Below, piece by piece: positions 5,441 through 37,858 of a stretch of 64,000 nt of DNA. The notes under the pieces are model-generated. The model ran no database searches. It had not been told where the DNA came from and saw nothing but the letters and a program-made list of their open reading frames with translations. The number at the start of each line of letters is the position of its first letter. Position 1 is the first letter of the stretch. The stretch covers positions 21,289-85,288 of the forward strand of contig JANLIK010000015.1 of NCBI GenBank assembly GCA_024653565.1, in the 5' to 3' direction. This DNA is from an archaeon (GTDB taxonomy: Archaea > Nanobdellota > Nanobdellia > Pacearchaeales > GW2011-AR1). Both the position numbers and the translations under genes were made by a program.

Positions 5441-5513
<73 letters not shown>

Positions 5514-5637
5514 TCTTGCTTTAGGGATCAAATGTTTGATTCCGAACATCTTTGCTCTTGAGCTAGAATATAATTAATCAAGAGTGAAGTGTGAGCAGTC
5601 TGTGGCTTATGTTCAAACCCGGGACGTCACGGGCGAA

Positions 5638-5692
5638 CAATTTGCTTTTGCGAACTAATCTCAACTATCTTGAGCAAATGCAAATTGTGAGG
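5638..5692 (+). other. Conserved ~55-nt motif (caatttgcttttg...caaatgcaaattgtgagg), copy A, abutting a duplicated tRNA-Thr 3' fragment
   Basis: Near-identical motif recurs at 11751..11802, also abutting a tRNA fragment. Confidence 0.5.
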
Positions 5693-5711
5693 TGATCCCC
5701 GTCTGTGGCTT
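5693..5711 (+). repeat. 19-nt exact direct repeat of the tRNA-Thr 3' end (tgatccccgtctgtggctt). The original is at 5496..5514; a shorter 13-nt copy sits at 5598..5610
   Basis: Exact string match seen in the sequence. The repeat ends inside the ATG of the GNAT gene. Confidence 0.8.
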
Positions 5712-6050
5712 ATGGAAAGGAAAAGAGTATTGCTATCTGAAGTTCTTGCTAGAGGAATAAGATTATCAATTGATGAGGGTGGCAGAGAAGTTGCCAGAGC
5801 ATATATTTATGTAATGAAGAACGACCTTCACGACCGCCCCTTTGGGCTAATGGAAGATGTATTTGTTGAAGAGGATATGAGGGGCAAAGGGTACGGAACC
5901 CAAATTGTTGAGGAAGTGGTAAGGTTAGCTAGAGTAAATAATTGTTATAAATTAATTTGTACAAGTAAACACCCAAACACGAGGGCCCATGAACTTTATA
6001 AAAGGCTCGGATTTTCTGAACAAGGACTAGAATTTAGAATGAATTTCTAA
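5712..6050 (+). CDS. GNAT family N-acetyltransferase
   Basis: Acetyl-CoA binding motif RGKGYGTQIVEEVVRLAR in a ~110-aa GNAT fold. Confidence 0.8.
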   Translation: MERKRVLLSEVLARGIRLSIDEGGREVARAYIYVMKNDLHDRPFGLMEDVFVEEDMRGKGYGTQIVEEVVRLARVNNCYKLICTSKHPNTRAHELYKRLGFSEQGLEFRMNF

Positions 6051-6085
6051 TAAAACTATAAAAAGACTTCTCACTTTTAGATATC

Positions 6086-7855
6086 ATGTGTGGAATTGTA
6101 GGATATTGGTCTGAAACAGAAAATGCGTTTGATATACTCCTAAACTCATTAAAAAAGTTAGAATATAGAGGGTATGACAGCTTTGGCTTTGCCACCCTAA
6201 ACAACAGAGATTTAATGACTGAAAGGAAGGTTGGAAAAATTAGTGATACCCAATGTGAAAGACTCCCAGGGAATATGGGAATCGGCCATACTCGGTGGGC
6301 CACACATGGGAAAGTAAATGAAATCAACTCTCACCCCCATAAAGATTGTTCTGGAAAAATCGCTGTAGTCCATAACGGGATAATAGAAAACTTCAAAGAG
6401 CTAAGAGATTATTTAGAAAAAACAGGACATACTCTTAGGAGTGAAACAGATACAGAAATATTAGCACATCTTTTAGAAGAGGGTTTGAAAAAAGGAATGA
6501 GTCTTAAAGAATCTGTGATAAGAATTTCCAATTTAGTCAGGGGAAGAAATTCTTTTGTAGCCTTATCTTCAGATACCGGAGAAATGATTGCTTCCAGAAA
6601 TGGTTCTCCACTAATCCTAGGTATAACTAATGGAAAAGAAGTGTTCATTGCCTCAGACATTCCTGCCTTTCTAGACAAAACAAAAAAGGTAACCTATCTA
6701 GATGACGGGCAGATTTGTTGTATAGGAGAACATTTAGAATTTTATGATTTTAAAACAGGGAATCAAGTCCAAAAGAGAGTTATTGAGATTGATTGGAAGG
6801 CGGAAGAAGCAGAACTTGGAGACTATAAACATTTTATGTTAAAAGAAATAATGGAACAAAAAGAAACACTCATTAGTGCTATGAATCAAAATAAAGAACA
6901 TCTAATTGAAGTTGCTAAAAGAATAAATGGGGCTAAAGGGGTATTCTTTATTGGGTGTGGAACCGCAGCGAGGGTATGCCATATTGCAGAATATGTTTTT
7001 TCTAAGGTTGCAAATAAACACATAAATTATATTACAGCCTCCGAATTTGAAAACTATGAACATTTTCTCCTCCCAGAAACGCTAGTAATCGCCGTTTCTC
7101 AAAGTGGAGAGACTGCAGATGTTCTAGACGCACTTAATATTGCAAAAAGAAAGGGTTGCAAGATTATTTCAATTTTGAATAACCCTGGTTCATCAATGGA
7201 AAGAATTTCAGATTACACTTTCCCAATTAATGCGGGTCCAGAAAAGGCGGTCGCATCCACCAAAGCCACAACCTCTCAAATCGCCGTAGTAATTCTTCTG
7301 GCATACGCATGTATAGAAAATATAAAGGAAGCAGATAGAATCCTCTTAGACCTTTCAGGAAAGGTCAATGATATGCTAAACCCAAGATATGAGGCACATA
7401 TAGGATATGTGGCCAAACAGGTCTATAAAAATAAAGACATATTCATAATTGGAAGAGGGATAAACTATCCTCTAGCCATAGAATCCGCAATAAAATTAAT
7501 GGAGGTTTCCTATATTCATGCCCAAGGTTTTGCGGGGGGAGAATTAAAACACGGACCCATTGCCCTAATCGAAAAAGGAACACCTGTTATTGCTTTAATT
7601 GCTGAAGACAAAACTAAAGAAGAAATTTTAAGCAACGCTATGGAAGTAAAATCACGTGGGGCTATAATAATTGGAGTTAGTCCAGAAAAAAACGAAATCT
7701 TTGATTATTGGATAAAAACTCCTAAGGTCGATGAAGTGGCCTCCGTAATCGCAAACCTGATTCCAATACAACTTTTGTCTTATAATATAGGCATTCTTAG
7801 AGGATACAATGTGGATTATCCTAGAAATTTAGCTAAAAGTGTTACTGTAAGATAG
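6086..7855 (+). CDS. glmS: Glutamine--fructose-6-phosphate aminotransferase (glucosamine-6-phosphate synthase)
   Basis: N-terminal MCGIVGY nucleophile of the Ntn amidotransferase domain, followed by two SIS domains. 589 aa. Confidence 0.9.
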   Translation: MCGIVGYWSETENAFDILLNSLKKLEYRGYDSFGFATLNNRDLMTERKVGKISDTQCERLPGNMGIGHTRWATHGKVNEINSHPHKDCSGKIAVVHNGIIENFKELRDYLEKTGHTLRSETDTEILAHLLEEGLKKGMSLKESVIRISNLVRGRNSFVALSSDTGEMIASRNGSPLILGITNGKEVFIASDIPAFLDKTKKVTYLDDGQICCIGEHLEFYDFKTGNQVQKRVIEIDWKAEEAELGDYKHFMLKEIMEQKETLISAMNQNKEHLIEVAKRINGAKGVFFIGCGTAARVCHIAEYVFSKVANKHINYITASEFENYEHFLLPETLVIAVSQSGETADVLDALNIAKRKGCKIISILNNPGSSMERISDYTFPINAGPEKAVASTKATTSQIAVVILLAYACIENIKEADRILLDLSGKVNDMLNPRYEAHIGYVAKQVYKNKDIFIIGRGINYPLAIESAIKLMEVSYIHAQGFAGGELKHGPIALIEKGTPVIALIAEDKTKEEILSNAMEVKSRGAIIIGVSPEKNEIFDYWIKTPKVDEVASVIANLIPIQLLSYNIGILRGYNVDYPRNLAKSVTVR

Positions 7856-7856
7856 A

Positions 7857-8168
7857 CTAACCATCTGTCCTATTGATCTTAACAGCCCTTACAACCGCTC
7901 CAGTTGTATCAACTCCAACATCCCAGAGATTACCCACAGCCCTACCAATCCAACCAAAATAAAGGTAAACTCCTTTTACAACACCCCCTGGTGAAGATAG
8001 GTCTACTGTTTCAGAAGTAAATACACTAACTATAGAAAAATACAAAAAAAATCCCAATAAAATTATTAATACAATCTTTACCTTCCTAAACTGATGTTCT
8101 GTTTTAAGAAAAAATAACCCAGCTATAATAAAAGCAATTAGCACAATGACTGGGAGAGCAAATGACAT
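7857..8168 (-). CDS. Small membrane protein (103 aa)
   Basis: An ORF with two predicted TM helices. No motif recognised. Confidence 0.4.
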   Translation of the reverse strand: MSFALPVIVLIAFIIAGLFFLKTEHQFRKVKIVLIILLGFFLYFSIVSVFTSETVDLSSPGGVVKGVYLYFGWIGRAVGNLWDVGVDTTGAVVRAVKINRTDG

Positions 8169-8183
8169 GGTATAATAAGACTT

Positions 8184-8894
8184 TTGTCTTATAAAAATGT
8201 TTTTATACCTCTAGAGTGTAGTAAGTCTATGAAGAAAAAGAGGTTGAAAATCTATTTATTTAGACATGGAGAGACAACATATAATCGTGATGGACGGTTT
8301 ACAGGGCATTTAGATGCCAAACTAACTGCTAAGGGAAAAAGACAGGCACTAGGGTTTGCTAAGACACTAAAAAGAAAGAAGTTTCAGGTTGCAATAAGAA
8401 CAAGTCTATCACGTTCTAAAGATACACTAGCCCCAGTTTTAAAGGACCACCCGGAATGTGTCTTAGTTATTGAAGATAATAGAATGATTGAAAGAAGTTA
8501 TGGAGACTTAGAAGGAATTACACATGATCAATTCAAAAAAAGGATTGGAAAACAAGAATATGACTTGGAAGTAGAGGGGGATGCAATCGAGAATCTTGAG
8601 CCAAAATTAAGAAAAAAAGTTGAAGAATTTTTAGGAAATGAAGAGTATAAAGCAATCCATAGGGGATTTGATGTAGCACCTCCAAACGGAGAATCCTTTA
8701 AAGATGTTGAAAAGAGAGTAAGAAAATTTATCAAAGACTTAAAGAAATTTATGAAAAAGAACAAAGTTAGTGTAGTTATTTCCGCACACGGAAATTCAAT
8801 AAGGCTCTTTAGAAAGGTGGCCGAGGGAGCTTCTGTTGAAGAAACTGTCAAGTGGTTTATACCATATGATAAGATTTTCACATACGAGGTATAA
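8184..8894 (+). CDS. Histidine phosphatase family protein (phosphoglycerate mutase-like). The start may instead be the ATG at 8229
   Basis: RHGETTYN catalytic motif (RHG) near the N-terminus and a conserved His later (SAHGNSIR). Confidence 0.7.
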   Translation: MSYKNVFIPLECSKSMKKKRLKIYLFRHGETTYNRDGRFTGHLDAKLTAKGKRQALGFAKTLKRKKFQVAIRTSLSRSKDTLAPVLKDHPECVLVIEDNRMIERSYGDLEGITHDQFKKRIGKQEYDLEVEGDAIENLEPKLRKKVEEFLGNEEYKAIHRGFDVAPPNGESFKDVEKRVRKFIKDLKKFMKKNKVSVVISAHGNSIRLFRKVAEGASVEETVKWFIPYDKIFTYEV

Positions 8895-8895
8895 C

Positions 8896-9465
8896 ATGAA
8901 AATCTCCGACGATGTTTACAAGATTTCAGGTGAAGGAAACGTATACTTAATTTTAAAACCAGAACCTATAGTAATTGATTCAGGGTGTATGTCTCAAAAA
9001 AATAGTATTCGTATACAAATTGAGAGTATCGTCCCCCTAGACCAAATAAAAAAAGTTCTATTAACACACTTACATTATGATCACTCTGGAAATGTTGATT
9101 TATTCCCAAATGCAGAGTTTTATGCAGATGAAGAAGAAATTGAGGACTTTAAAATAAATCATTTTAATTTTTTCTTCAGTCGTGTTCCAACCGAGGTCTA
9201 TGATGTTTTAATGAATAAATTAGTTCCTTTTCAAGGTAGAATAAATGAGCTAGAAGTAATACAAACACCTGGACACACTAGGGGTTGCGTCTCATTTGTA
9301 GACCACAAAAACAAACTTTTATTCACAGGAGACACTCTTTTCAACAATGGCGTTGGGAGAACAGATTTAGAAAACTCTGTCCCAAAGAAGATGACAAAAA
9401 GTTTAAACAAATTAAGAGCTTTAATCAAAAAGGGATACAAACTTCTTCCCGGGCATGATTATTAA
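8896..9465 (+). CDS. MBL-fold metallo-hydrolase
   Basis: HLHYDHSGN (HxHxDH) zinc-binding motif, a PGHTRG motif and GDTLF. The start was moved to the ATG at 8896 to avoid overlap with the upstream gene. Confidence 0.75.
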   Translation: MKISDDVYKISGEGNVYLILKPEPIVIDSGCMSQKNSIRIQIESIVPLDQIKKVLLTHLHYDHSGNVDLFPNAEFYADEEEIEDFKINHFNFFFSRVPTEVYDVLMNKLVPFQGRINELEVIQTPGHTRGCVSFVDHKNKLLFTGDTLFNNGVGRTDLENSVPKKMTKSLNKLRALIKKGYKLLPGHDY

Positions 9466-9526
9466 TCCGAAAGGTATAAATTACCTAAAAAGAACCATAT
9501 TAACCTAGGCCAGGAAAATTCTAAAA

Positions 9527-11404
9527 ATGGAGGACGTTATTCAAAAACAGGAAGAGGTAAAATCGAAAGATTTGGAATACTTAAAGATTTTAAAAGCTTT
9601 AATGGAATTACCCTTCCAGGTAGGAAAGAATTTATTGATAGATTTTCTAAAGGGAGATTATAAGAATAAATCTATAATAAATAATCGGCTCGACAGACTA
9701 CACACTTTTGGAACTCTTAAATGGGAAAGCACAGCAATTTCACAAAAAATAGACAATTTAATAATGAATAGGATGATTGAATGGGTCACAAGCGATTATA
9801 ATAAATTCATAAAGGTTTTAGAAATAACTTCAAAAGGAGGGAAAGAAATTCTTAATCCCACACTCCAAAACAAAAGTTTAAACAACAAAATAGAATTCAG
9901 TGAAGCCGAGATAACAAAAAAAGAAAGAGACGAATTTGTAAAATTAGATGACTTTCTCAATGGATATAATGAAAATCAAAAAAAGGCAATTATCTCCATG
10001 GCATCAAAGATTCTTTGTGTTGCTGGAGCCGGTTCTGGAAAGACCACAGTCCTAACAAAAAGAATAGAATTTTTGATAAGACACAGAGAAATCAATCCAG
10101 AGAAAATTCTAGCCATTACATTCACTCGTAAGGCCAAGAATGAAATGGAAAAAAGATTAAAAGATAGCGGAATCTTCGGCGTAAAAGTAAATACCTTCAA
10201 TTCATTCTGTGAGAGAATCTTAAAAAAATATGAGGGAGTAATTTATGGAAAAAGAATGGGCGTCCAAGGATATGGGGATAAGATTTTAGGAATGACCATG
10301 GCATTTGGGAGACTTGGAATTGAAATGGAAGATGTAATAAAAGAATACTTTGGACCACAACAAAGAAAATTCAAAACCCAAAATCAATTATTCAATAATT
10401 TTATGAATGATTGTTTTTCTGTGATGGAATATTTTAAGGTTACTGGGGAAGAAGAATATAATTTTAGTAAAGATGTAGAACCCAAAGATAAGAAAAATGC
10501 CGAGAGAGTTTACTTAATTAACAAATACTTAAAAGAGCATATGGAAATACAAGGACTTAGGGATTATTCTGACCAGTTAATTGATGCAATAAAATTCTTA
10601 AAAGAAAATCCAAAAGAAGTCCCTGAATTTGAACATTTACTCATTGATGAATACCAGGATGTAAACGCAATGCAAGTTGAATTGATAAACCTACTCAAAG
10701 CAAAAAACATATTCGCTGTTGGGGACCCTAGACAGAGTATTTTTGGTTGGAGGGGTTCTGATATAAGGTATATTTTAGACTTTGAAAAAGAATATGGTCA
10801 AAGTGAAGTAATACACTTAACAAAGAATTATAGGAGTAGCAAGAGAATAGTTGAATTTATGAATAAGGCAATTAAAGAAATGGGGCTTCCAGATTTAGAA
10901 AATCACTGTCAAGATGAGTCTAAAATTAAAATCATAAATTTTGAAAATGAAAATGCAGAAAGAGAATTTGTAATAAGGAAAATATTAGAATCAAAGGTCC
11001 CCCGAAATGAAATCTTTGTCCTCGCCAGAACAAACAGACAATTACAAGAACTATCCCAAATAATGAAAATGGCAAATATCTCCCATGTCTTAAGGACAGA
11101 TGAAGTAAAAAGACCGGTAGAAGGTAAGGAGGGCGATGTAACTCTTGCAACAATTCATGCAATAAAAGGACTTGAGGCAGAAAAGGTATTCCTAATAGGA
11201 GCAAATGAACAGAATTTTCCATGCAAGGCAACAGACCATCCTGCAATAGAAATGGTAAAGATGGATAATTATAATAAAACAGAAGAAGAAAAGAGATTAT
11301 TTTATGTAGCCATATCTCGAGCAAAAAAGATGCTTTACATCACATATCCGGGGAAGAAACCCACTTATTTCATCAATGATGATATGTTGGGGATGGGGGA
11401 ATAG
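9527..11404 (+). CDS. UvrD/PcrA-family ATP-dependent DNA helicase with an N-terminal extension
   Basis: Walker A AGAGSGKTTVL, motif Ia AITFTRKA and motif II LLIDEYQDVN. C-terminal helicase motifs are also present. Confidence 0.85.
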   Translation: MEDVIQKQEEVKSKDLEYLKILKALMELPFQVGKNLLIDFLKGDYKNKSIINNRLDRLHTFGTLKWESTAISQKIDNLIMNRMIEWVTSDYNKFIKVLEITSKGGKEILNPTLQNKSLNNKIEFSEAEITKKERDEFVKLDDFLNGYNENQKKAIISMASKILCVAGAGSGKTTVLTKRIEFLIRHREINPEKILAITFTRKAKNEMEKRLKDSGIFGVKVNTFNSFCERILKKYEGVIYGKRMGVQGYGDKILGMTMAFGRLGIEMEDVIKEYFGPQQRKFKTQNQLFNNFMNDCFSVMEYFKVTGEEEYNFSKDVEPKDKKNAERVYLINKYLKEHMEIQGLRDYSDQLIDAIKFLKENPKEVPEFEHLLIDEYQDVNAMQVELINLLKAKNIFAVGDPRQSIFGWRGSDIRYILDFEKEYGQSEVIHLTKNYRSSKRIVEFMNKAIKEMGLPDLENHCQDESKIKIINFENENAEREFVIRKILESKVPRNEIFVLARTNRQLQELSQIMKMANISHVLRTDEVKRPVEGKEGDVTLATIHAIKGLEAEKVFLIGANEQNFPCKATDHPAIEMVKMDNYNKTEEEKRLFYVAISRAKKMLYITYPGKKPTYFINDDMLGMGE

Positions 11405-11443
11405 AACCTCACCCCAACAACAAGTTACACCCTCTGGTCGCTA

Positions 11444-11689
11444 TGCTCCCGCCGGGATTTGAACCCGGGTCGCCGCCGTTCTCCGAAGGATTCCTCGCTT
11501 AAAGTAGTTGTCTGAAGTCAGACTGGAGTTATGGTCTCATCGACTGGAACTCCCCACCTCTTGAAAGTCAGACTTTGTCTGATATTCAATCCTCGCGATG
11601 AGCGAGTCTTGAAGTTTAACTTATCAACTTCCGTTTCGAGGAACCTCAAATTGAGAGGGCGGTATCCTTGGCCACTAGACTACGAGAGC
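11444..11689 (-). tRNA. tRNA-Glu (anticodon CUC) interrupted by a ~173-nt intron at the canonical 37/38 position. Exons are 11652..11689 and 11444..11478
   Basis: The 5' exon is GCUCUCGUAGUCUAGUGGCCAAGGAUACCGCCCUCUCA, with anticodon stem CCGCC and loop CUCUCA. The 3' exon is C-GGCGG-CGAC-CCGGGUUCAAAUCCCGG-CGGGAGCA and pairs perfectly with the acceptor and anticodon stems. The exon D-arm/anticodon arm (GUCUAGUGGCCAAGGAUACCGCCC) is near-identical to that of a classical bacterial tRNA-Glu, and the T-arm/acceptor 3' end (GACCCGGGUUCAAAUCCCGG...AGCA) to an archaeal tRNA-Glu. Confidence 0.65.
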
Positions 11690-11750
11690 CTAATGAAAGA
11701 AAGTAGTCAGTGGCTTTTAAAGATTACGCCATCGAGACTGAGAGGGTGAG

Positions 11751-11802
11751 CAATTCGCTTTTGACCTAATTTCTGTATTCGTCAAATGCAAATTGTGAAG
11801 AG
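11751..11802 (+). other. Conserved ~55-nt motif, copy B (caattcgcttttg...caaatgcaaattgtgaagag), abutting a duplicated tRNA-Glu 5' fragment
   Basis: Shares caatt.gcttttg ... caaatgcaaattgtga with 5638..5692. Confidence 0.5.
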
Positions 11803-11830
11803 GTATCCTTGGCCACTAGACTACGAGAGC
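11802..11830 (-). repeat. 29-nt exact duplicate of the tRNA-Glu 5' end (acceptor plus D-arm). The original is at 11662..11690
   Basis: Exact string match (ggtatccttggccactagactacgagagc) on the + strand. The copies diverge immediately after the repeat. Confidence 0.8.
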
Positions 11831-20551: not shown

Positions 20552-21604
20552 ATGGTAAAGAAAAAAGAGAATTCTAAAAAATCATGGGGATTGACGATTT
20601 TTATCATAATACTTGTCATTTTAATTATAGGGTATTCAACAAATTGGTTTGGACTTAATAAAGAAGTAAGAATGAGTCCATTAGAAGATTTGGCGAGATG
20701 GGTGTTCCCTGGAGATAATGAAGAAGAAGGAATTATCAATCCCGTTCTACCAACAAATGAACTAAGAGATAATCAAGCAAGTTTAGCTAATGGTATAAGA
20801 CCTATAGAAGATGTAAATATGGTCTCACTCATTCCTGGAGGGGCACTCTCCCAAGCACTAGTAGTTAGTGGTTGTGTTATGTGTAAGGAATTTGGATCTA
20901 AGGAAGGAGGTTATACCCTAAATGATGACGATGAAATTGAAGCAATGGACGACGCCATAGAAGCGGCCGAAGAACAAGGGAAAAGTATAGGAGGATATAC
21001 TACCGATGATAATTTTAAGTATGGAGGTATTGCGGGACCAGAGGATTGTTTTGGTGACTGCGAAACACCCCAACAGGAATGTCAGATGGTATTAAGAATT
21101 CCTTCAGAGGGAGATGTAAAAATTACTTGTTTATGTGCACCCCCAGATAATAAGGGGAATATTGTGAATGTCAATGGAAATAATTATTTCATTTTAGAAG
21201 ATGGAGGAACCAAAATAACTGAAGTAAAAGTCAATCCCCCTAAAGGGAAATGTGGTGGAAGTACTAAAGTTATCGTAGGTTCTATCTCCACCAGTGAAGG
21301 GTATAATGTTGACAAGGATGAACAGAATAATAATTTGAAAGAACAAACCAAAGCTAAAAATATAGTTAAATCAAGATTGCAACAACTATGTCAAGAAGAA
21401 GTAGATGGTATTAAGGATTGTCCTACTGCAAGTAAAGAATTTTGCTCTAACCAGATTAAACCACCTGTAAAGTCGTGTACTGCAACACTAAATAATAACT
21501 TAAAATGTGGTGCTTCACCTTCATATGTCGTTGGACAACCTAGAGGAGTAGTTACGGGAACATTATCACCCACTGGAGAAGCAGTATGTACTTGTGCCCC
21601 TTAA
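20552..21604 (+). CDS. Secreted or membrane-anchored Cys-rich protein (350 aa)
   Basis: N-terminal TM/signal anchor and many paired cysteines. Confidence 0.5.
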   Translation: MVKKKENSKKSWGLTIFIIILVILIIGYSTNWFGLNKEVRMSPLEDLARWVFPGDNEEEGIINPVLPTNELRDNQASLANGIRPIEDVNMVSLIPGGALSQALVVSGCVMCKEFGSKEGGYTLNDDDEIEAMDDAIEAAEEQGKSIGGYTTDDNFKYGGIAGPEDCFGDCETPQQECQMVLRIPSEGDVKITCLCAPPDNKGNIVNVNGNNYFILEDGGTKITEVKVNPPKGKCGGSTKVIVGSISTSEGYNVDKDEQNNNLKEQTKAKNIVKSRLQQLCQEEVDGIKDCPTASKEFCSNQIKPPVKSCTATLNNNLKCGASPSYVVGQPRGVVTGTLSPTGEAVCTCAP

Positions 21605-21701
21605 GAAGTTTAACACCAACATCTCAGACATTTATTTCACTACTGCCCATAGACGAATTTTCTCAGAAATTCTTATAAAGGTGTAATTTTGTAGTAGTAC
21701 T

Positions 21702-24700
21702 ATGTCTAAGATTACTTTCACAAACAAAATAGTCTTTCTTTTAACATTAGTCTTATTAATTGGACTTTCAGCAATAGTAACTGCAGCCGCAAGCCAAACT
21801 TGCTATGATAATGGACTTGACCAAGCAGATACAAAAACTATTCAAATGGAAGGAAAAGGTTCTGGAACATATAAGTGTCCTGGAAACATGATTGTTAGTG
21901 GTTTTGCAATGGATGATAAAGATGACCGACATGCAACTGCCTTAAAATGTATGAACACCTCTGGAGTTCTGGTAAGCCATACAGAAACAAAAGTAAAACT
22001 TACTGTAGATGGAAAAAATTCTTGTGGTTCTGGGAAGATTATGACTGGTGTAATTTATGTTGATTCTGGAGACGACCACATAAGCCATATAATCTGTAAA
22101 GCAGCAAACAATATAAGTTCTAATAGTAGACTAATTGTTTTGGCAGGAAAAAGCGGAAATTCTTTCACAGTATATTCTGACGAAGGAAATGGCCAAGTTG
22201 CTTGGGGAATCACTGCAGTAAACCAGAATAGAGACCCCCAAAAGAATCTAAGGGGAATGTATGCTTCTAGGATAAATATGGGAATTCCCGGAGAAGGAAT
22301 ACAAAAGTGTGTCCAAACAAACATTTGTGACGCGGGATACGAAGCGGTTCTTAAAACAACAAAAACTCTAGATGCAACAAAATCCGCCACAGCAGGGGAC
22401 ACACAAAGAAATGGATTCAAACTTCCAGTAGGAGAATATGTATTTGAATTATATTCTGGAGCATGGAGTAGATGGAATTCTGATAATAAGGACTCAACAA
22501 ATGTTGGTGGGAAAAATGGATACACTTGGTTATCAGATGCAAAAGTAAGATACAAAACTAGTTCAAACAACTATAACGGATTTTTCCTCGGAGAAGATGC
22601 CTATTACAAAAACGCATCAGCCGCACAATCTGCAAACGCAGGAGCCCTACAATTCGCAAACATAACATATAGTAGCTGGCTATCTAACAATGTTTGGGTA
22701 TGGATAAAAGACACACCAATAACTGACAACAGGAATGGAGAAGGGAAGGTTATTGTAAAGGTTTGGCAATGTAGTTTAATTCCACAATGTAGGGATGGAA
22801 TTGATAATGATGGAGATGGTGTAACTGATTATCCAAATGACTTTTCATGTTCAAGCGCAAACGACGCAACAGAAGGCACACCCCTTACACAATGTCAAGA
22901 TGGTATTGACAATGATGGAGATGGTGTAACTGATTTAGCTGACCCTGGTTGCCTAACAAACCAAGGGAATAACGAAGGCTCTGCAACAACACAATGTCAA
23001 GATAGTGTTGATAATGATGGGGATTCCTTAACAGATACAGCAGACCCTGGATGTTGGACAGATGTTACAAACCCAAGTACTTATAATAAGACAAGAAACA
23101 ACGAATCAACAGCAACCTCCCAATGTCAAGACGGAATTGATAATGATGGAGACAATGCAACAGATTATCCAAATGATTTCTCATGTTCGGCACTAACAGA
23201 TAACAACGAAACAAATCCTCTTGCCCAATGTCAAGATGGTGTTGATAATGATGGAGATGGTGTAACTGATTTAGCAGACCCTGGATGTTCAACAAATCAA
23301 GGAAACAACGAAAGTTCAGCAACAACGCAATGTCAAGATAGTGTTGATAATGATGGAGATGGTGTAACTGATTTAGCAGACCCTAGTTGTTCTATCGCAA
23401 CAGATGATGACGAATCTAAGGATGTAACAGCTCCTGTAATATCTAATATTCTTACAATTCCCTCATTACCCCTAACAAACTTTGGACAAAGTCAAAACCT
23501 TTCAGTAGATTTTGATAGCTCAGAATACCTTATAGACATCACATTTAACCTTTATGATAGCAACGGCACCCTCGTGAACACCCAAGGACCAACAAGCATT
23601 CCAAATAACTCTAGTTTGCCTGTCCTATATATTATACCTGCTGGATTGTCTGTAGGAGACTACACTCTAAACATGACTGCAACTGACCCAAGTAATAATT
23701 CAGCAACTGTGAATGTTGGAACAATATTAGTAAGAAATTATCAATGCTCTGATGGAACTGACAATGACGGAGATGGTTACATAGACCTAGCAGACTTTGG
23801 ATGCTCAAGTGCTACAGACGATGATGAAACAAACAATGGAACATTCCAATGTAATGATGGAACTGACAATGACGGAGATTCGTTCATAGACCAACTTGAT
23901 GCTGGATGTTCTGCTTGGGATGATGATAATGAAACAAATACCATTCCTCCAACAACCCCTCAATGTTCAGATGGAACTGACAACGACGGGAATGGATTAA
24001 TTGATTTCCCCGCGGACCCAGGCTGTATGAATGCTTCGGATAATGACGAAATGGATCACTCTCATATTCACCAATGTTCAGATGGAATTGACAACGACGG
24101 GGATGGTTCAATAGACTTCCCTGCAGACTTTGGATGTTCATCTTCAATGGACGATGATGAAGTGAATAACAACTTAACATACCAATGTTCTAATGGTCTA
24201 GATGATGACGGAGATTCATTCATAGACCAATTAGACATGGGATGTTCTGCTTGGGATGATGATAATGAAACAAATACCATTCCTCCAACAACCCCACAAT
24301 GTTCTGATGGAATTGACAATGACGGAGATGGTTACATAGACTTAGCAGACTTTGGATGCTCAAGTGCTACAGACAATGATGAAACAAATCCTATGGCACA
24401 ATGTCAAGATGGAATCGACAACGACGGAGATGGAGATATCGACATGGTAGATTCTGGATGTATTAATAGTCAGGACAATCGAGAATATAAAAGTTCTTCA
24501 AACAGCAGAAGCACATCAAGTGGTGGAAACAGCGGCCAATGTATTGAGGGAAATTGTGGAGACTTTAATGATCAAATAATCCCACAACTCCAGGTTAAAA
24601 CTATTGAACCAATTGTATTGAACGCAGGGGATTCAATTATATTAGGTAGTGGAGAAACAACAACCAGATTAATAACTGGAAACTCAATTGCCCTTGATAA

Positions 24701-24833
24701 AGACAATAGTGAAAGCCCTACAGCATCCACAGCATCAACAGCAAACGAAGGGATCTTACCAATAATCCTTAAATTCCTAATAATTGGAATCATAATTCTT
24801 ATAGTTATAATTATCTTGATAGTTGTGCTTTAG
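21702..24833 (+). CDS. Large cell-surface protein (1043 aa) with about 14 MopE-like C.DG.DNDGDG..D metal-binding repeats and a C-terminal TM anchor
   Basis: Signal peptide, repeated CQDGIDNDGDGVTDYPNDFSCS units that also show as DNA tandem repeats (22780-24480), and a C-terminal hydrophobic anchor ILPIILKFLIIGIIILIVIIILIVVL. Confidence 0.7.
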   Translation: MSKITFTNKIVFLLTLVLLIGLSAIVTAAASQTCYDNGLDQADTKTIQMEGKGSGTYKCPGNMIVSGFAMDDKDDRHATALKCMNTSGVLVSHTETKVKLTVDGKNSCGSGKIMTGVIYVDSGDDHISHIICKAANNISSNSRLIVLAGKSGNSFTVYSDEGNGQVAWGITAVNQNRDPQKNLRGMYASRINMGIPGEGIQKCVQTNICDAGYEAVLKTTKTLDATKSATAGDTQRNGFKLPVGEYVFELYSGAWSRWNSDNKDSTNVGGKNGYTWLSDAKVRYKTSSNNYNGFFLGEDAYYKNASAAQSANAGALQFANITYSSWLSNNVWVWIKDTPITDNRNGEGKVIVKVWQCSLIPQCRDGIDNDGDGVTDYPNDFSCSSANDATEGTPLTQCQDGIDNDGDGVTDLADPGCLTNQGNNEGSATTQCQDSVDNDGDSLTDTADPGCWTDVTNPSTYNKTRNNESTATSQCQDGIDNDGDNATDYPNDFSCSALTDNNETNPLAQCQDGVDNDGDGVTDLADPGCSTNQGNNESSATTQCQDSVDNDGDGVTDLADPSCSIATDDDESKDVTAPVISNILTIPSLPLTNFGQSQNLSVDFDSSEYLIDITFNLYDSNGTLVNTQGPTSIPNNSSLPVLYIIPAGLSVGDYTLNMTATDPSNNSATVNVGTILVRNYQCSDGTDNDGDGYIDLADFGCSSATDDDETNNGTFQCNDGTDNDGDSFIDQLDAGCSAWDDDNETNTIPPTTPQCSDGTDNDGNGLIDFPADPGCMNASDNDEMDHSHIHQCSDGIDNDGDGSIDFPADFGCSSSMDDDEVNNNLTYQCSNGLDDDGDSFIDQLDMGCSAWDDDNETNTIPPTTPQCSDGIDNDGDGYIDLADFGCSSATDNDETNPMAQCQDGIDNDGDGDIDMVDSGCINSQDNREYKSSSNSRSTSSGGNSGQCIEGNCGDFNDQIIPQLQVKTIEPIVLNAGDSIILGSGETTTRLITGNSIALDKDNSESPTASTASTANEGILPIILKFLIIGIIILIVIIILIVVL

Positions 24834-24844
24834 AAATTAATAAT

Positions 24845-25045
24845 TTATTCTTTCAAACTGCTAAGACTCATAACTAATAGGATTGCCCCAAGAATAATCA
24901 ACATCCAAACAAGACCACCCTTAAAAAAAACAGATGCAGCATCACCAACACCCCAAATATTCACAATCCATGCAGAAATTGGTGCAAGAAACAAAATCAA
25001 CCCAAAAATTATCCCAATAAATTTGTTCATTACATAAATAAACAA
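24845..25045 (-). CDS. Small two-TM membrane protein (66 aa)
   Basis: ORF only. Confidence 0.35.
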   Translation of the reverse strand: MFIYVMNKFIGIIFGLILFLAPISAWIVNIWGVGDAASVFFKGGLVWMLIILGAILLVMSLSSLKE

Positions 25046-25142
25046 AAGTGCTTTATATATATTTTTAGTCTAGAAAATATACTTTAGGATGACTTAAACA
25101 AAGTTTTATAAATAACTTAGACTAGTATAAAATATGAAAAGT

Positions 25143-25157
25143 GACTTCATTGAAGTC
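25143..25157. promoter_or_regulatory. Perfect palindrome GACTTCAtTGAAGTC in a conserved leader about 36 nt upstream of the MKKW start
   Basis: An inverted repeat seen directly in the sequence. A near-identical leader sits upstream of the divergent gene ending at 29120. Confidence 0.45.
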
Positions 25158-25192
25158 TCATGTTTCAATTTATCAAAGGAGAAGATGAAAAT

Positions 25193-25462
25193 ATGAAAAA
25201 GTGGGTGAGCTATACAATCGCAATATCTGGCTTAGTGATAATGGCTATAGGTTTTGGAACATTCAAACTTGAATGGGCAATCCTGAACACCATAAGTCCT
25301 ATGATAATAACAATAGCTGGAGTTATCCTAATCGTCGTTGGAGTTTTATTCTCTCTAATGGGAGGGTCTGGAGGAAACCAGGCCGCAAGAGAAGTTCCTA
25401 TTTATGAAGGAGAAGGAAAAAATAGAAAAATTGTAGCCTACCAAAGAAGCAGTGATGATTAA
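25193..25462 (+). CDS. Small membrane protein. Start placed at MKKW, where AAAGGAG lies 9 nt upstream; the longer 25160 start is less likely
   Basis: SD-like AAAGGAGAAG precedes the ATG at 25193. Two TM helices. Confidence 0.5.
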   Translation: MKKWVSYTIAISGLVIMAIGFGTFKLEWAILNTISPMIITIAGVILIVVGVLFSLMGGSGGNQAAREVPIYEGEGKNRKIVAYQRSSDD

Positions 25463-25477
25463 ATTTATTTAGAAAGA

Positions 25478-26284
25478 TTATCCGATATTTCTCAAGGCCT
25501 TTTCCATTTCCTTAATCCTATCCCCCACACGCTCTGCTGCGGCAGTCTGTGGAGGAGTAGCAGTCAAATAATTCATTTGTTCCTCTCTCATCTCTAAGAT
25601 TTTTAGAGTCATCTTATCTCGAAGTTTTGTCTTGGCTCCCACACTTCCCTGCCTATAATCTGCCAATCCAAACCACTTATGGATTGCGTTATCAAAGATA
25701 AAAGAGAGTATAACAAACCCCAAACCAATCCAGTAGATAATATTTGTTATTCCAATTTTTGAGCTATCATAATACCAAAGAGCAATAAACGCCGCTGCAA
25801 AGATTACCCATCCGGCCCGACGTCCAAATGTTTGGAAATTATTACTGTTATGTAGAAAGAAGAAAAATATTGCTAATGGTAAGAAGACTAAGATAGCTAC
25901 ACTTAAAGCACCATAAGGAATTCGAATACCTTGAATTAACTCATCAGGCAAATATCTAACAGCAAGAATTGATATTGCTAGCCCTATTATAAAATTCAGT
26001 CCTTTTTTATCAGAAAGAATCTTGTTTTTATTAAGGATAAAATAAATTACTATAAATGTAAGGAAAAAAAATAAAAGCTTAGTATAAATCAGCTCTTGAT
26101 TATCATAGGGGGGTGTAAATAGTACCAACGAGATAAACTTAAGAAGAACTCCTACCAGTTCCCCTATCCAACCCAAGAGAACTCCCACTTTTTGAATTTC
26201 TCCACTAACATCTGCGGCACTCACAAGTGAAAAGGAAAATAAAGTAACTAGAGAAGTTAACATCTTTTTTTTCATAATTCTCAC
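25478..26284 (-). CDS. Multi-pass membrane protein with signal peptide (268 aa)
   Basis: ORF with hydrophobic segments. Confidence 0.55.
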   Translation of the reverse strand: MRIMKKKMLTSLVTLFSFSLVSAADVSGEIQKVGVLLGWIGELVGVLLKFISLVLFTPPYDNQELIYTKLLFFFLTFIVIYFILNKNKILSDKKGLNFIIGLAISILAVRYLPDELIQGIRIPYGALSVAILVFLPLAIFFFFLHNSNNFQTFGRRAGWVIFAAAFIALWYYDSSKIGITNIIYWIGLGFVILSFIFDNAIHKWFGLADYRQGSVGAKTKLRDKMTLKILEMREEQMNYLTATPPQTAAAERVGDRIKEMEKALRNIG

Positions 26285-26369
26285 AACCCATCAAAGTTTA
26301 AAAACATTTGTTTGATATTAAACAATCTACCAGCGAAATATTTATAAAGAAAGATTAACTAAAGAAGAA

Positions 26370-27206
26370 ATGAAAAAGGGCTTCAACAAAAGAGGACAGA
26401 ATATATTTGCAGGAGTTGTCGTCGTTCTTCTTGTTATTTTTTTCGGGATTCTTATCTTTGGTTGGATTGACAAGGGCTCTGCAGAAGGGGGCATGAATCT
26501 AGTAAGTAGTATATTTGTAGATATTCTTGGGCCATTATTTAAGGGCTTGCTAGGTTTTGATGGAACAAATGATTTTATGATGGTCTTAGCCTTCCTAATG
26601 GCTGCAATAGTAGTAGTATCAACTTTAGATTCTATAAATATTTTTGGTGAGTCCAAATCTGGACACCTTGTAAACTTCTTCGTTGGAATGATTGTCGCAG
26701 TCATAGGTGTTAGATTTATGCCTTCAACCCTTTGGAATGGATTATCATCTCCTGCAAGCGCATTTATTGCAACAATACTCGTAGGATTACCCTTCTTAGT
26801 AATGTTCTTCATAACTATGAAGATTAAGTCTCGTTTAGCAAATAAGGTAATCTGGTTAGTTTATTTTGCATTCTTAAGTTACCTTATAGCTACAGGGACA
26901 TTCGATGTAGATGGAGCTAAGGCTACAATGTGGATATATATCATCTTCGCATTTCTTTCCCTGGTAATGTTAATCTTTGACGCAAGTATAAGAAGAATAT
27001 TTTACAAAGAAAGAGTTGAAACAGGAATAGCTCAAGCAAAAGGAACCCAAGCCCTAATCCAAATACAGAAGCTAAAAGCCTTAATACAAGAATATCAAAC
27101 TGTTATTGCAGACCCTAATTCTGATCCAAAAACAAAAGCAGACGCTAGGAAAGCAATGATGAACACTGAAAAGACAATAAGAGAGTTATCCGGACTAGGA
27201 AAATAA
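26370..27206 (+). CDS. Multi-pass membrane protein, paralog 1 of a tandem pair
   Basis: MKKGFNKRGQNIFAGVVV N-terminus resembling a class III (prepilin-like) signal. Clearly paralogous to 27369..28220, with a conserved upstream region. Confidence 0.6.
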   Translation: MKKGFNKRGQNIFAGVVVVLLVIFFGILIFGWIDKGSAEGGMNLVSSIFVDILGPLFKGLLGFDGTNDFMMVLAFLMAAIVVVSTLDSINIFGESKSGHLVNFFVGMIVAVIGVRFMPSTLWNGLSSPASAFIATILVGLPFLVMFFITMKIKSRLANKVIWLVYFAFLSYLIATGTFDVDGAKATMWIYIIFAFLSLVMLIFDASIRRIFYKERVETGIAQAKGTQALIQIQKLKALIQEYQTVIADPNSDPKTKADARKAMMNTEKTIRELSGLGK

Positions 27207-27368
27207 TTAGATAGTCTTCCTAAAATTCCCAAATATTAAACATCTTTTGTAAGTACATAATGTCTAATAATCTCAAAAAAAGAAATTAATTTATTTGAGA
27301 AAAATTTTATTTAGAAAAAGATAATTCACCAGCGAAATATTTATAAAGAAAGATTAACTAAAGAGGAA

Positions 27369-28220
27369 ATGAAAACGGGCTTCAACAAAAGAGGACAAAA
27401 CATATTTGCAGGAGTTGTCGTTGGTATTCTTATTATTCTTGCAGGGATTTTTCTTATCGGTTGGTTTGCTCTAGAGGGAGGTACCGCAGAGAAAGGTATG
27501 AATTTGGTAAGTGAGTTATTTATGACAATTTTAGGTCCGATATTCAAAGCAGTTTTAGGATTAGACCAAACAGGACAGAATAATGCCTTCTTAATGGTTT
27601 TAACGTTTCTCTTAGCATCTATAGTTATTGTATCAACTCTTGATTCTGTAAATATCTTTGGTGAATCAAAAGCAGGACACCTTGCAAACTTCTTTGTCGG
27701 AATAATCGTCGCAATCATAGGTGTTAGATTTATGCCTAAAGATCTTTGGATGTCTTTAACATCTCCGGCAAGTGCATTCATTGCAACATTACTTATAGGA
27801 TTACCTTTCTTAGCTATGTTCTTTATAACTATGAAGATTCGGTCTCGTTTAGCAAATAAAGTAATTTGGTTAGTTTATTTTGCATTCTTAAGTTACCTTA
27901 TCGCCACAGGAACCTTTGGTGTGGAAGGGGCTAAAGCTACACTTTGGGTATATATTATATTTGCTGTACTTTCCCTATTAATGTTCTGGTTTGATGCAAC
28001 CTTCAGAAGATTAATCTACAAAGAAAGAGCAGACCTAGGCATCTCTAAAGCCAAGGGCTCTCGAGCCTTGGCGCAAATAAATACTCTAACAACAAGTATA
28101 GAAGCCTATCAGAATATTATTGCAAATCCAATGGCATTACCTGCAGACAAAGTGGCAGCTAGAAAGCATATAAAAGAGATTGAAAAGACAATAAGAGAGC
28201 TATCTGGATTGAAGAACTAG
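27369..28220 (+). CDS. Multi-pass membrane protein, paralog 2 of a tandem pair
   Basis: MKTGFNKRGQNIFAGVVV N-terminus. Conserved upstream sequence accagcgaaatatttataaagaaagattaactaaaga. Confidence 0.6.
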   Translation: MKTGFNKRGQNIFAGVVVGILIILAGIFLIGWFALEGGTAEKGMNLVSELFMTILGPIFKAVLGLDQTGQNNAFLMVLTFLLASIVIVSTLDSVNIFGESKAGHLANFFVGIIVAIIGVRFMPKDLWMSLTSPASAFIATLLIGLPFLAMFFITMKIRSRLANKVIWLVYFAFLSYLIATGTFGVEGAKATLWVYIIFAVLSLLMFWFDATFRRLIYKERADLGISKAKGSRALAQINTLTTSIEAYQNIIANPMALPADKVAARKHIKEIEKTIRELSGLKN

Positions 28221-28442
28221 TTATAGAAATTATCTCCTTGCCCTATATATTCTCCATCATTTTGTTGAGATATCTAGAAATATTATATTAATACAAAGGC
28301 AGAGATAAAAAAGTAAAGGGTGAGCTAGGATTCTAGCCAATCTAGAAACATACAGAATAAATCCTTAGAAACTTTAATGTGAATATTACCTCCTATACTT
28401 ACAAATAGAATCTATAAAATAAACATTCCTAATCCCTCAACC

Positions 28443-29120
28443 CTATGGAGGACCCATTGTACCATCATTTACTACCTCTTGTACTTCTGCCATGGCCTTT
28501 AACTTAGACATCTGAGTTCCGGCAGCAGTTCCTTCATCTATGGCATCTCCTATCTTTTTCTTTCTCACAACCTTATTTACAACAATATGGAGGAGAAAAC
28601 AAAGCCCTATAGCTCCTAGAATCACTAAGATTGAAGGAAAGGTACCAAGACTTTCACTTTTAAAGCTAAACAATGAAAGAGCCAAGGATTTTATAATTCC
28701 AAAGAAAGAAAGGACAAGAGTAAACACCAAGGAAACTACACTTGAAATGGTTCCAGAAGATGGAGTAAATAAGTGAATAACATTCTGAAGAATTGAAAAA
28801 ACAATAATAAATATGCCTATTAAAACAATAAATAAAAAGATACTTAAGTTATCCCCTGAGGTCACTTTAAATATAATTTCAGAACCAGACTGCATCCATT
28901 TAGGAACAGAGATTTCTATAGGAAATGATACTTTTGATTTATCAAATAAATTACTCCCAAGTTCTTTTGATTTATCAACTAAATTAACTCCTTCTCCATC
29001 AGTCACAACACTTTCACCTGAGTCACCCGAACCAGCCACGGGAGGATCACTCTCTTGAGCAAAAATAATGGGGAGAATTAATAAAAAAACAAATACCAAC
29101 AATATTAACTTCTTTTTCAT
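28443..29120 (-). CDS. Secreted or membrane protein. Start placed at MKKKLILLV; the annotated longer start at 29153 is probably leader
   Basis: Signal peptide and a C-terminal TM segment. Same conserved leader as 25193. Confidence 0.5.
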   Translation of the reverse strand: MKKKLILLVFVFLLILPIIFAQESDPPVAGSGDSGESVVTDGEGVNLVDKSKELGSNLFDKSKVSFPIEISVPKWMQSGSEIIFKVTSGDNLSIFLFIVLIGIFIIVFSILQNVIHLFTPSSGTISSVVSLVFTLVLSFFGIIKSLALSLFSFKSESLGTFPSILVILGAIGLCFLLHIVVNKVVRKKKIGDAIDEGTAAGTQMSKLKAMAEVQEVVNDGTMGPP

Positions 29121-29155
29121 ATTTTTGTCTTCTCCTTTAATAAATTGAAACATGA

Positions 29156-29170
29156 AACTTCAATGAAGTC
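29156..29170. promoter_or_regulatory. Second copy (14 of 15 nt) of the GACTTCAtTGAAGTT palindromic leader element, on the minus strand
   Basis: Seen in the sequence. It lies within a ~60-nt leader conserved with 25139-25200. Confidence 0.4.
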
Positions 29171-29243
29171 ATAATTTCATGATTTATTTAGTTAATACAT
29201 ATTTAAAACTCTTTCTAACAAAGTTTAAAAGTAAAAGAGACCT

Positions 29244-37214: not shown

Positions 37215-37241
37215 GCACCCTTCACAAGAAAAGGAAAGATT

Positions 37242-37379
37242 ATGTATCACGTAGGAATAATCATAGTTTGTTTTTTGGTCGCCGTAATCGTCATCTTCTT
37301 TCTCCTTCGAGAAGTAGACAAAAGGGATCACAAAAAGTTCCGGGACGAGCAGGAAAAGTTCTGGGACGACAATCCATAG
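37242..37379 (+). CDS. Small single-TM peptide (45 aa) at the right edge of the G+C-rich island
   Basis: ORF with one TM helix and an AAGGAAAG SD-like upstream region. A long hairpin follows at 37400-37436. Confidence 0.3.
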   Translation: MYHVGIIIVCFLVAVIVIFFLLREVDKRDHKKFRDEQEKFWDDNP

Positions 37380-37477
37380 GACAAGACCAAAGGCAGAAGA
37401 GGGAAGCGATGACTTCGATGCGCTTGCCCTCTTTGACCAAACAAAAAATTTAAATACTATAGTGCACTATGTAGTGT

Positions 37478-37663: not shown

Positions 37664-37858
37664 AAAAGCGCTTCGCGCATAAGTAACCCTCATTCTCTTA
37701 ACATGCTTGTTCAACCAAAAAAAGCCGTTTTACATTCACTAATCGCCGAAGGCGAAATAAAAAGTATAATCCAACCAACTCGTTAAAGAGTTTACAACAT
37801 TACTAAACTTCCCAAAGCGAGCATCCTGACGCAAGGCGGATGCGAGCAATTACCAAAC

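Follow-up and report, generated by a model that had tools for sequence, protein, structure and literature searches.

The described systems nearest to the element reported here are the REP/REPIN sequences and the IS200/IS605-derived PATEs (HUH Y1/RAYT systems), which are short, geneless imperfect palindromes lying between genes, with arms that are conserved and a centre that varies more freely, and which form a strand-specific hairpin, use a short specific 5′ target without target-site duplication, keep to the same strand along a replicon and occur at low to moderate copy number. To our knowledge RAYT/REP systems have been described in bacteria and not in DPANN archaea, whose tiny genomes have most of their tRNA genes in single copy and from which very few mobile elements have been described. 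In a 64-kb stretch of a Pacearchaeales contig (the window; 64,000 nt of JANLIK010000015.1) we find an element, here called E, that resembles these palindromes in all of the above respects, its 5′ target being G-N-GGG, and that lies beside the tRNA-Thr gene (copy wThr) and the tRNA-Glu gene (copy wGlu). It differs from them in being a single hairpin, in its DPANN host, in a preference for sites that resemble the tRNA T arm and in its embedding in tRNA pseudo-fragments, and for these last two features we know of no counterpart. E appears to be a small, hitherto undescribed mobile element of DPANN archaea. We favour, with moderate confidence, the reading that E is a small non-autonomous hairpin insertion element that prefers G-rich T-arm-like sites and persists in dispensable tRNA pseudo-fragments.

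A first-pass annotation of the window had noticed that the ends of both tRNA genes recur close by, and these repeats hold. The last 19 nt of tRNA-Thr (TGATCCCCGTCTGTGGCTT) recur exactly at 5693-5711 and with 74% identity at 5590-5608, and repeat analysis recovers the first 29 nt of tRNA-Glu exactly at 11802-11830. The common motif placed beside each repeat is equally real, with an exact shared 16-mer (CAAATGCAAATTGTGA) and a matching 5′ arm at both sites, and its bounds are refined to 5634-5691 and 11747-11799. Exact repeats of 19 and 29 nt less than 200 nt from their source lie far beyond chance; a tRNA fragment and a shared motif alone do not establish an integrative element.

Further copies, for which a search had been suggested, were found in number. 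E was collected from other archaeal stretches (numbered L001-L019) in two scans, one of species-representative genomes, which gave three stretches (Woesearchaeota and uncultured archaea), and one of metagenomes, which gave 18; setting aside two chance matches inside open reading frames (ORFs) and two duplicates (from two duplicate pairs) left 17 independent loci. A covariance model built from 19 E copies (R1) scores 60-76 bits on E copies and gave no match at an E-value of 0.1 or below in 682 kb of unrelated viral DNA used as a control. Together the genome and metagenome scans and the covariance model place about 21 additional copies in DPANN archaeal contigs, those added by R1 being L018:3144-3214, L001:3711-3784, a divergent copy at L003:4078-4153 and a degenerate one in the window at 5537-5600. 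In the 64-kb window itself R1 finds only three copies, all beside the window's only two tRNA genes. It is practically inconceivable that this pattern reflects chance, low complexity or an assembly artefact: the genome is AT-rich and a 16-mer with up to three mismatches is expected to match about 1.3 times per window, but the exact 19- and 29-nt repeats, the full motif at 17 independent loci, the gap between R1 scores of 60-76 bits and a clean control, and the same junction at different tRNAs all stand against it. The covariance model found no E in IMG/VR, where 60 and then more than 120 single-arm matches were all chance or coding, and a viral or plasmid origin was rejected on these results. 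Rfam returned no family for E, either at its gathering score or at an E-value of 5 or below, and the arm sequences were not found in the literature searched.

As RNA, E reads 5′-Y-GA-R-C-AAUU-C-GC-U-UUUG, loop, CAAA-U-GC-A-AAUU-G-U-GA-R-3′, over 53-75 nt (roughly 55 nt being typical), and its arms match at 13 of 17 positions. A test for conserved RNA structure had been suggested, and a covarying, strand-specific hairpin was found. Its closing Y-R pair is C-G in 14 copies and U-A in four, its distal pair is C-G in eight and A-U in four, and at the three variable stem pairs all 12 one-sided changes yield G.U, the one other departure being a single unpaired cell at pair 13-69. Tandem G.A/A.G, C.A and U.U are retained in every copy, and the positions beyond the search pattern (CGARCAATTC) are nearly invariant, while the loop, of 10-35 nt, cannot be aligned between lineages. 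Because the G.U changes would be mismatches (C.A) on the opposite strand, E is a strand-specific single-strand structure. Loop sub-lineages are common to different genomes at different tRNAs, wThr resembling the copy at L010 and wGlu that at L007, and copies on one contig are co-oriented in four of four contigs. GC skew, examined in an attempt to orient replication, tracks gene strand.

Several other small elements bear some likeness to E but differ from it. Miniature inverted-repeat elements of the DDE type (e.g. SM-type, Sulfolobus) are also tiny and non-coding, with inverted-repeat ends and presence/absence differences, but the fixed-length target-site duplication of that class was not found, the flanking direct repeats of E elsewhere ranging from 0 to 42 nt, and the retained G.A, C.A and U.U together with the one-strand G.U point to a folded single strand rather than two protein-binding ends. 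No parent transposon sharing the ends of E was found in about 194 kb of archaeal sequence or in IMG/VR. Integron attC sites share with E a folded single-strand hairpin with conserved mismatches, a variable loop and foot boxes (CGAAC/GTGAG against RYYYAAC/GTTRRRY), but E has no cassette array, ORF cassettes or IntI, many of its copies carry GAGC instead of AAC, and it is conserved in sequence across genomes and not in structure alone. Among further candidates, a hammerhead ribozyme is suggested by CUGACGAG in one subfamily and was rejected, since GAAA is missing after stem II and Rfam gives no match; a box C/D or H/ACA guide was likewise rejected, since correctly ordered C/D boxes are lacking and the flanks repeat the tRNA in sense orientation rather than as antisense guides.

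Evidence that E inserts comes from sites away from tRNA genes, which comprise a small repeated intergenic unit, the leader of an L7Ae gene (L004) and a 62-nt tandem repeat (L011). The intergenic unit, of about 60 nt (TAATTAAT..GGGAGCTGCC^AAGCGACCATATAAT.., with ^ marking the position of E), occurs once without E (L012:1596-1672) and four times with it (L012, L006, L005 and L016), and the alignment shows one clean gap of hairpin length and no target-site duplication. At L004 the L7Ae gene (best NCBIfam match TIGR03677) has E 37 nt upstream of it, and E is absent from the alignable leader at 16 comparison loci (L204-L219) from three related lineages, in which the covariance model gave no match at an E-value of 10 or below and the L7Ae homologues are 82-90% identical within the same Kae1-L7Ae-S28e-L24e-GyrB order. 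A small hairpin of the leader (CGAG-GA^GAAAUU-CUCG) carries the insertion point in its loop, after GAGGA, again with no target-site duplication. Presence and absence of E with sharp boundaries in alignable loci, the mark of a mobile insertion, are therefore seen at two kinds of locus. At L011 (1678-1955) a 62-nt unit is repeated 4.5 times at 97% identity directly after a ribosomal-protein operon, and E interrupts the first, diverged unit, once more after GAGGG; a CRISPR array or leader was rejected there, as the whole 62-nt unit is repeated and unique spacers are lacking.

The same sites bear on whether E is simply a regulatory sequence. A generic promoter, the alternative that the first-pass annotation had set against its own proposal, or an untranslated-region element more broadly, does not account for a motif that behaves as an insertion, runs antisense to the genes on either side at six or more loci and is missing from orthologous L7Ae leaders; a TATA-like stretch does stand in the loop at a suitable distance from the 3′ end in about half of the copies, as expected from base composition. 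E might instead be a host-selected functional RNA, that is, a protein-binding tandem-G.A hairpin (for L7Ae or another ribosomal protein, for example) in the leaders and trailers of translation genes. Its flanks, resembling tRNA, would then serve for processing or as decoys, for example as a T-arm/acceptor minihelix recognized by RNase P, RNase Z or enzymes that bind the T arm. This would suit a stem that is strongly conserved down to its non-Watson-Crick pairs while the loops are free and G.U is confined to one strand, as well as the company of tRNAs, L7Ae, S6e, S8e, RNase P RNA and Cbf5, and the tRNA-derived flanks that pair around E in several units (for instance the 10-bp stem GUCACGGGCG/CGUCUGUGGC at tRNA-Thr). 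Archaeal L7Ae indeed binds a structured element in its own leader (PMC6298567, PMC5539422), known l7ae leaders carry a GAU bulge followed by G.A/A.G (PMC6298567), and E shares tandem G.A/A.G at the hairpin base with L7Ae kink-turns. A standard k-turn is nevertheless rejected, since the pair flanking the GA covaries (14 C-G, four U-A), no 3-nt bulge is present and orthologous L7Ae leaders do without E, so that E is not a conserved regulator there. Together with its position antisense to both neighbours at six loci or more, with decayed and stacked copies that indicate turnover, with flanks that match the local tRNA exactly over 8-29 nt, which speaks for copying and not for convergent function, and with a T-arm copy that lacks the universal T54-Psi55-C56, this leads us to consider a functional RNA rather unlikely.

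Two side observations concern the host sequences themselves. The conserved intergenic unit, possibly a small RNA gene, is preceded by a TATA-like box, contains a UGC-GAAA-GCA hairpin, occurs in varied genomic contexts and carries E near its predicted transcription start. At the 16 comparison loci a conserved leader about 100 nt upstream of L7Ae consists of a TATA box (AGTTTTATAAA), then TACCAATGA, a hairpin and TTGGAAC; no canonical k-turn could be drawn in it by eye, and it is probably an autoregulatory element of DPANN L7Ae.

Within the window the tRNA-Thr site is built as follows.

5441-5513, + strand: intact tRNA-Thr(GGU), source of the repeated 3′ piece (ARAGORN; Rfam tRNA model, 64.3 bits).
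5524-5543, + strand: pseudo-T-loop palindrome of unit 1, an inverted copy of tRNA-Thr 54-62 (GGGATCAAA, 5524-5532), TG, and the direct TTTGATTCC (5535-5543).
5537-5600, + strand: degenerate hairpin, either a weak E match (R1 23.2 bits, E-value 0.005) or a second hairpin type, CTCTTGA..TCAAGAG-TGAAG (fold), with stems at 5555-5561 and 5578-5584.
5590-5611, + strand: middle, partly decayed copy of the tRNA-Thr 3′ end with ATG (TGTGAGCAGTCTGTGGCTTATG; repeat families).
5612-5633, + strand: left part of unit 2, inverted tRNA-Thr 46-58 (TTCAAACCCGGGAC, 5612-5625) followed by direct 46-53 (GTCACGGG, 5626-5633).
5634-5691, + strand: E, first copy (wThr), an imperfect hairpin from CGAAC to GTGAG in place of T-loop 54-55 (R1 64.8 bits; fold).
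5693-5714, + strand: direct copy of tRNA-Thr 56-73 plus T (5693-5711), running into the GNAT ATG.
5712-6050, + strand: GNAT acetyltransferase ORF, a neighbour outside the element (Pfam PF00583).

Because the left flank of E at 5626-5633 is also tRNA-derived, what had been taken for a tRNA-Thr fragment is a partial second tRNA copy interrupted by E. The duplicated piece was said to abut the motif directly; adjacency holds, with a gap of a single G here and of 2 nt at tRNA-Glu. The start codon of the GNAT gene (ATG, 5712) is not made at the repeat boundary, as had been supposed, and lies within the repeated unit: copies 2 and 3 run on to ...GGCTTATG and include the ATG that follows. In the older unit (5535-5611) the E remnant stands one helical strand later, after position 61, as does E in L003. 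A second hairpin type, CTCTTKA / AT-rich loop / TCAARAG-TGRAAG, is seen beside tRNA fragments both here (5555-5589) and at L012 (8994-9036), and may be a separate element family or decayed E.

The tRNA-Glu site follows the same scheme on the opposite strand.

11444-11689, − strand: tRNA-Glu(CUC), interrupted after position 37/38 by a 173-nt intron; the repeated 5′ piece derives from it (ARAGORN with introns; manual reading; fold).
11703-11714, + strand: inverted partial copy of tRNA-Glu 8-20 (GTAGTCAGTGGC), which can pair with 11808-11820 and so enclose E.
11736-11746, + strand: left flank of E, antisense tRNA-Glu 38-30 (GACTGAGAGGG; by-eye comparison).
11747-11799, + strand: E, second copy (wGlu), a hairpin from TGAGC to GTGAA, antisense to tRNA-Glu (R1 68.3 bits).
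11802-11830, + strand: exact antisense copy of tRNA-Glu 1-29, stopping exactly at the tRNA +1 (repeat analysis).

The tRNA-Glu gene is missed by default ARAGORN and by the Rfam tRNA model and is found once ARAGORN allows introns. Its intron is unusually long at 173 nt and holds two AGTCAGAC-type hairpins. The order beside it, antisense 38-30, E, GA, antisense 28-1, again describes a partial second tRNA copy interrupted by E, because the left flank at 11736-11746 is tRNA-derived as well, and the local sequence GAGAGGG|C|GGTATCC resembles the T arm GAGGG|TTC|GATTCC. The symmetric geometry of the two sites, read in the first-pass annotation as that of two element ends, is seen as described but is explained by a single rule, namely insertion after a G-rich run in T-arm-like sequence, which at tRNA-Glu happens to lie in an antisense copy of the 5′ half.

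The same embedding recurs across genomes. Nine E copies sit within partial second copies of a neighbouring tRNA, six of them with replacement of the T loop, and these six involve Thr (wThr), Phe (L009), Leu (L010 and L018), Lys (L013) and an untyped intron-bearing tRNA (L019). At this junction E and N-A stand in place of T54-T55-C56 and are followed by a copy of 57-73 with 0-3 further nt, except that at wThr positions 54-55 are replaced and 56-73 follows; a copy of tRNA 44/46-53 precedes E in five of the six (L018 being the other), the intact tRNA lies 35-150 nt upstream, and the downstream repeat at L009 ends 4 nt short of the tRNA end. At L007 an antisense E related to wGlu lies at tRNA-Asn with a 42-nt flanking repeat. 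Over all copies, in genomes whose GC content is about 35%, the flanks follow the consensus G-N-G-G-G, E, N-A-R-R. The tRNA stretch that is copied at E usually also appears, inverted, just upstream of the left flank, as at 5612-5625 in the window, GAACCTCTGAC in L013, ACACGACC in L019 and the reverse complement of 46-65 in L009. Decayed, stacked or nested copies are found in the window (5537-5600), at L018:3085-3150 and as a remnant in L013, and three-fold tRNA repeat arrays occur at wThr, L013 and L018.

Partial tRNA copies also exist without E. At L012 tRNA-Lys is followed by the reverse complement of 52-63 and then by direct 52-70 with an intact TTC; unit 3 of L018 is a palindromic T-arm copy without E together with a third 3′-end repeat; and the first 15-17 nt of tRNA-Leu are repeated upstream of the gene twice in L002 (4832-4960, − strand) and once in L018 (2834-2850), each time with an inverted partner. 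Because of these E-less examples we conclude that inverted and direct duplications build up around tRNA genes irrespective of E. As observations in their own right, perfect inverted and direct palindromes of a tRNA's own T arm, with TTC intact and no E, lie at L012 8931-8985 (tRNA-Lys) and L018 3226-3250 (tRNA-Leu) and correspond to the window units minus E, and each repeated piece in L002 leads into a hairpin, the other arm of which carries that tRNA piece in inverted form.

Related short insertions at the same position of different tRNAs, the T loop included, are known from the transposed, non-canonical bulge-helix-bulge tRNA introns of Thermoproteales, but E lies in non-functional partial copies and its removal restores no TTC. 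An archaeal bulge-helix-bulge intron was rejected, as the pairing that it needs, with two 3-nt bulges on either side of a 4-bp helix at the insertion boundaries, proved on inspection by hand to be incompatible with the register of the covarying hairpin, and the T loop left after excision would lack TTC. The 3′ or 5′ half of a split tRNA was rejected too, TTC being absent, an intact tRNA adjacent and no bulge-helix-bulge drawable.

Repeats of tRNA parts beside an intact tRNA are most familiar as the attL/attR sites of tRNA-targeting elements with a tyrosine integrase (SSV-type, pTN3-type), in which, as at the E sites, an exact repeat of a tRNA segment adjoins the intact gene and may be serial; direct repeats of this sort occur at both window sites and at L003, L009, L010, L013, L018 and L019. 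On this likeness the first-pass annotation had proposed the two ends of one integrative element, or the footprints of its loss. Neither proposal survives. The two sites share one orientation, have their own local repeats and enclose a housekeeping interval without an integrase: the 6 kb between the copies code for GNAT, GlmS, a histidine phosphatase, a metallo-beta-lactamase-fold protein, a UvrD helicase and tRNA-Glu, and the copies flank seven housekeeping genes on both strands. No cognate integrase, for which a search had been advised, is found among the 60 ORFs of the window by Pfam. The segments bounded by repeats measure just 108-180 bp and consist mostly of local tRNA-derived sequence, and the motif also occurs at non-tRNA sites, unlike classic att footprints. 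Relatives whose GlmS is 74% and 68% identical, considered for an empty-site comparison at the Thr and Glu loci, show no conserved gene order around glmS. Judged by the relatives of its GlmS, the source is a DPANN MAG of Pacearchaeota/Woesearchaeota-like type. What stands of the mobile-element idea is a discrete insertion, accompanied by duplicated tRNA pieces at many tRNA genes elsewhere.

The integrase explanation can also be cast in a refined form. Miniature att-type cassettes, tiny circles made of a tRNA 3′ piece, a linker, a T-stem copy and E, would be recombined at their cognate tRNA by a tyrosine integrase; the attP would resemble a T arm with E in its loop, each integration would restore the tRNA and displace the old 3′ end, and serial events would yield arrays. 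In its favour, the repeats extend from the T loop through the tRNA 3′ end and 1-3 nt beyond, reportedly the usual block for integrases with a T-loop crossover, the tRNA copy on the upstream side is intact in every case, the T-stem 5′ copy lies on the element side like a core-type binding site, three-fold arrays are present at wThr, L013 and L018, and the segment between the Glu repeats contains a TATA box well placed for the downstream intact tRNA. We still regard such cassettes as distinctly unlikely. The units are geneless, at 90-180 bp, with no integrase in 64 kb; each is made of its local tRNA and could never reach a new one, yet E sub-lineages are found at different tRNAs; E is also a clean insertion free of any repeat at non-tRNA sites; the L009 repeat that ends 4 nt before the tRNA end misfits an attR; E would put 55-75 bp between the putative core-binding arm and the crossover region; and IMG/VR gave no match. 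The same points, the lack of integrase and cargo, a locally derived segment of 90-180 bp and repeat-free non-tRNA sites, separate E from attL/attR in general.

We propose a model in which E is a non-autonomous insertion element whose active form would be the single-stranded hairpin of one particular strand. This hairpin would be inserted without target duplication just 3′ of a G-rich run (G-N-G-G-G, often GAGGR), typically at a 5′ stem/loop junction, and the tRNA T arm (GGG|TTC|RA) would be the commonest such target. Since a single-copy tRNA would be lost if E entered its functional T loop, E is expected to persist in dispensable partial tRNA copies, and lodging there places a duplicated tRNA terminus within 1-2 nt after the motif. 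At tRNA-Thr E would replace T-loop 54-55 in a second copy of tRNA 46-73, and at tRNA-Glu it would lie in an antisense second copy of the 5′ half (1-38), at T-arm-like sequence. The partial copies would predate E and would have arisen from template switching at the palindromic, heavily transcribed T arm and not from E itself. E would be moved in trans by an enzyme encoded elsewhere, and our best guess for the route is single-strand DNA (HUH / IS200-IS605 / REP-type) acting on transiently single-stranded, highly transcribed DNA, as suggested by the lack of target duplication, the short 5′ target, the strand-specific hairpin and the co-orientation of copies in all four contigs.

An RNA-mediated route is the alternative, in which E RNA would be joined into exposed loops of abundant structured RNAs (tRNA T loop, mRNA leader hairpins), or else to tRNA sequence by reverse-transcriptase template switching, and the chimeric cDNA would recombine beside the parent gene and duplicate part of it. 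The Neurospora retroplasmids (Mauriceville/Varkud) offer an analogue with mitochondrial tRNAs, where integration of a hybrid cDNA gives a partial duplication, and a partial duplication beside an intact gene is what homologous integration of such a cDNA would leave here. E is sense to the host RNA at wThr, L003, L009, L010, L013, L018, L019, the L7Ae leader and the intergenic unit, the repeats end where RNAs end (exactly at the +1 of tRNA-Glu; at tRNA 3′ ends plus 1-3 T), and the junctions, with 1-2 extra nt at the 3′ side and an untidy 5′ side, would suit it. We find this explanation very improbable all the same, as no reverse transcriptase was found in the window, the copied 3′ ends lack CCA, the Glu and Asn (L007) sites have E in antisense orientation to their tRNA, the 3′ pieces begin at 57 and include A58, which is not where known blocking modifications stop reverse transcriptase, and the inverted pieces keep the TTC that is absent from the direct copy and were therefore copied from intact tRNA DNA or RNA and not from a chimera. 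Reverse-transcriptase stops were rejected more generally as the origin of the fragment ends, the boundaries at 57, 28/29 and 15-17 misfitting m1A58, m2,2G26 and archaeosine-15.

Several observations weigh against the insertion model. At T-loop sites TTC is lost and N-A gained, which a simple cut-and-insert step fails to explain, and the inverted tRNA pieces beside E are locally derived and their origin is not accounted for. E is one hairpin that ends at its foot, whereas IS200/IS605 elements have two distinct subterminal hairpins and REPINs are doublets. Its copy number is low, at one to three per contig, and a near-invariant stem with entirely different loops at such numbers would fit a host-selected functional RNA as well; the search pattern moreover itself imposed the invariance of GCTTTTG and CAAATGCAAATTGTGA among the gathered copies. 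Neither solo arms nor arms more than 120 nt apart occur in about 194 kb of archaeal sequence, the arms being always paired within about 60 nt. Finally, integrase, transposase, reverse transcriptase and Cas1 families have no match in the enzyme screen, a Pfam scan that covered the 60 ORFs of this 64-kb window alone, and the same scan found no Y1/RAYT gene that would complete the likeness to REP/PATE systems.

Should the model hold, E would represent either a minimal selfish element of a new kind or a substrate for an enzyme not yet recognized. It offers a concrete account of the tRNA pseudo-fragments that confuse tRNA annotation in these genomes, and opens a way to examine the long-standing proposal that the evolution of archaeal tRNA gene structure is driven by mobile elements. 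It is unlikely, though by no means fanciful, that E further marks an undescribed DPANN insertion system that attacks the loops of structured nucleic acids, above all the universally conserved tRNA T loop. Such a system would act on the single-stranded DNA of highly transcribed genes, or on RNA with later copying into DNA. The partial and inverted copies clustered around tRNA genes in these genomes would be scars or decoys of that conflict, and the split and multi-intron tRNA genes known from Nanoarchaeota could owe part of their fragmentation to this process.

Other features of these stretches were recorded along the way. At L005 an archaeal RNase P RNA lies at 1421-1718 (− strand; 83.6 bits against an Rfam gathering score of 84), 355 nt from tRNA-Phe and 500 nt from an E copy, in a small cluster of non-coding RNA genes. 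The window contains a GC island at 28000-40000, which reaches 0.62 GC at 32-36 kb against about 0.35 elsewhere and includes an M29 peptidase (34443-35795) and a 979-aa ORF (31378-34317) whose domains are the shoulder and repeat types of Major Vault Protein; the island may be of foreign origin or result from chimeric assembly. Nine consecutive ORFs at 20552-31271, one of them of 1043 aa, have no Pfam match at 1e-4. A Holliday-junction-resolvase-related endonuclease, a C5 DNA methylase, a PD-(D/E)XK nuclease and a Fic-domain protein are encoded across 48667-49110 (− strand), 54066-55127 (− strand) and 55409-56511 (+ strand), and the stretch 48667-56511 may be a defence or restriction-modification neighbourhood unrelated to E.

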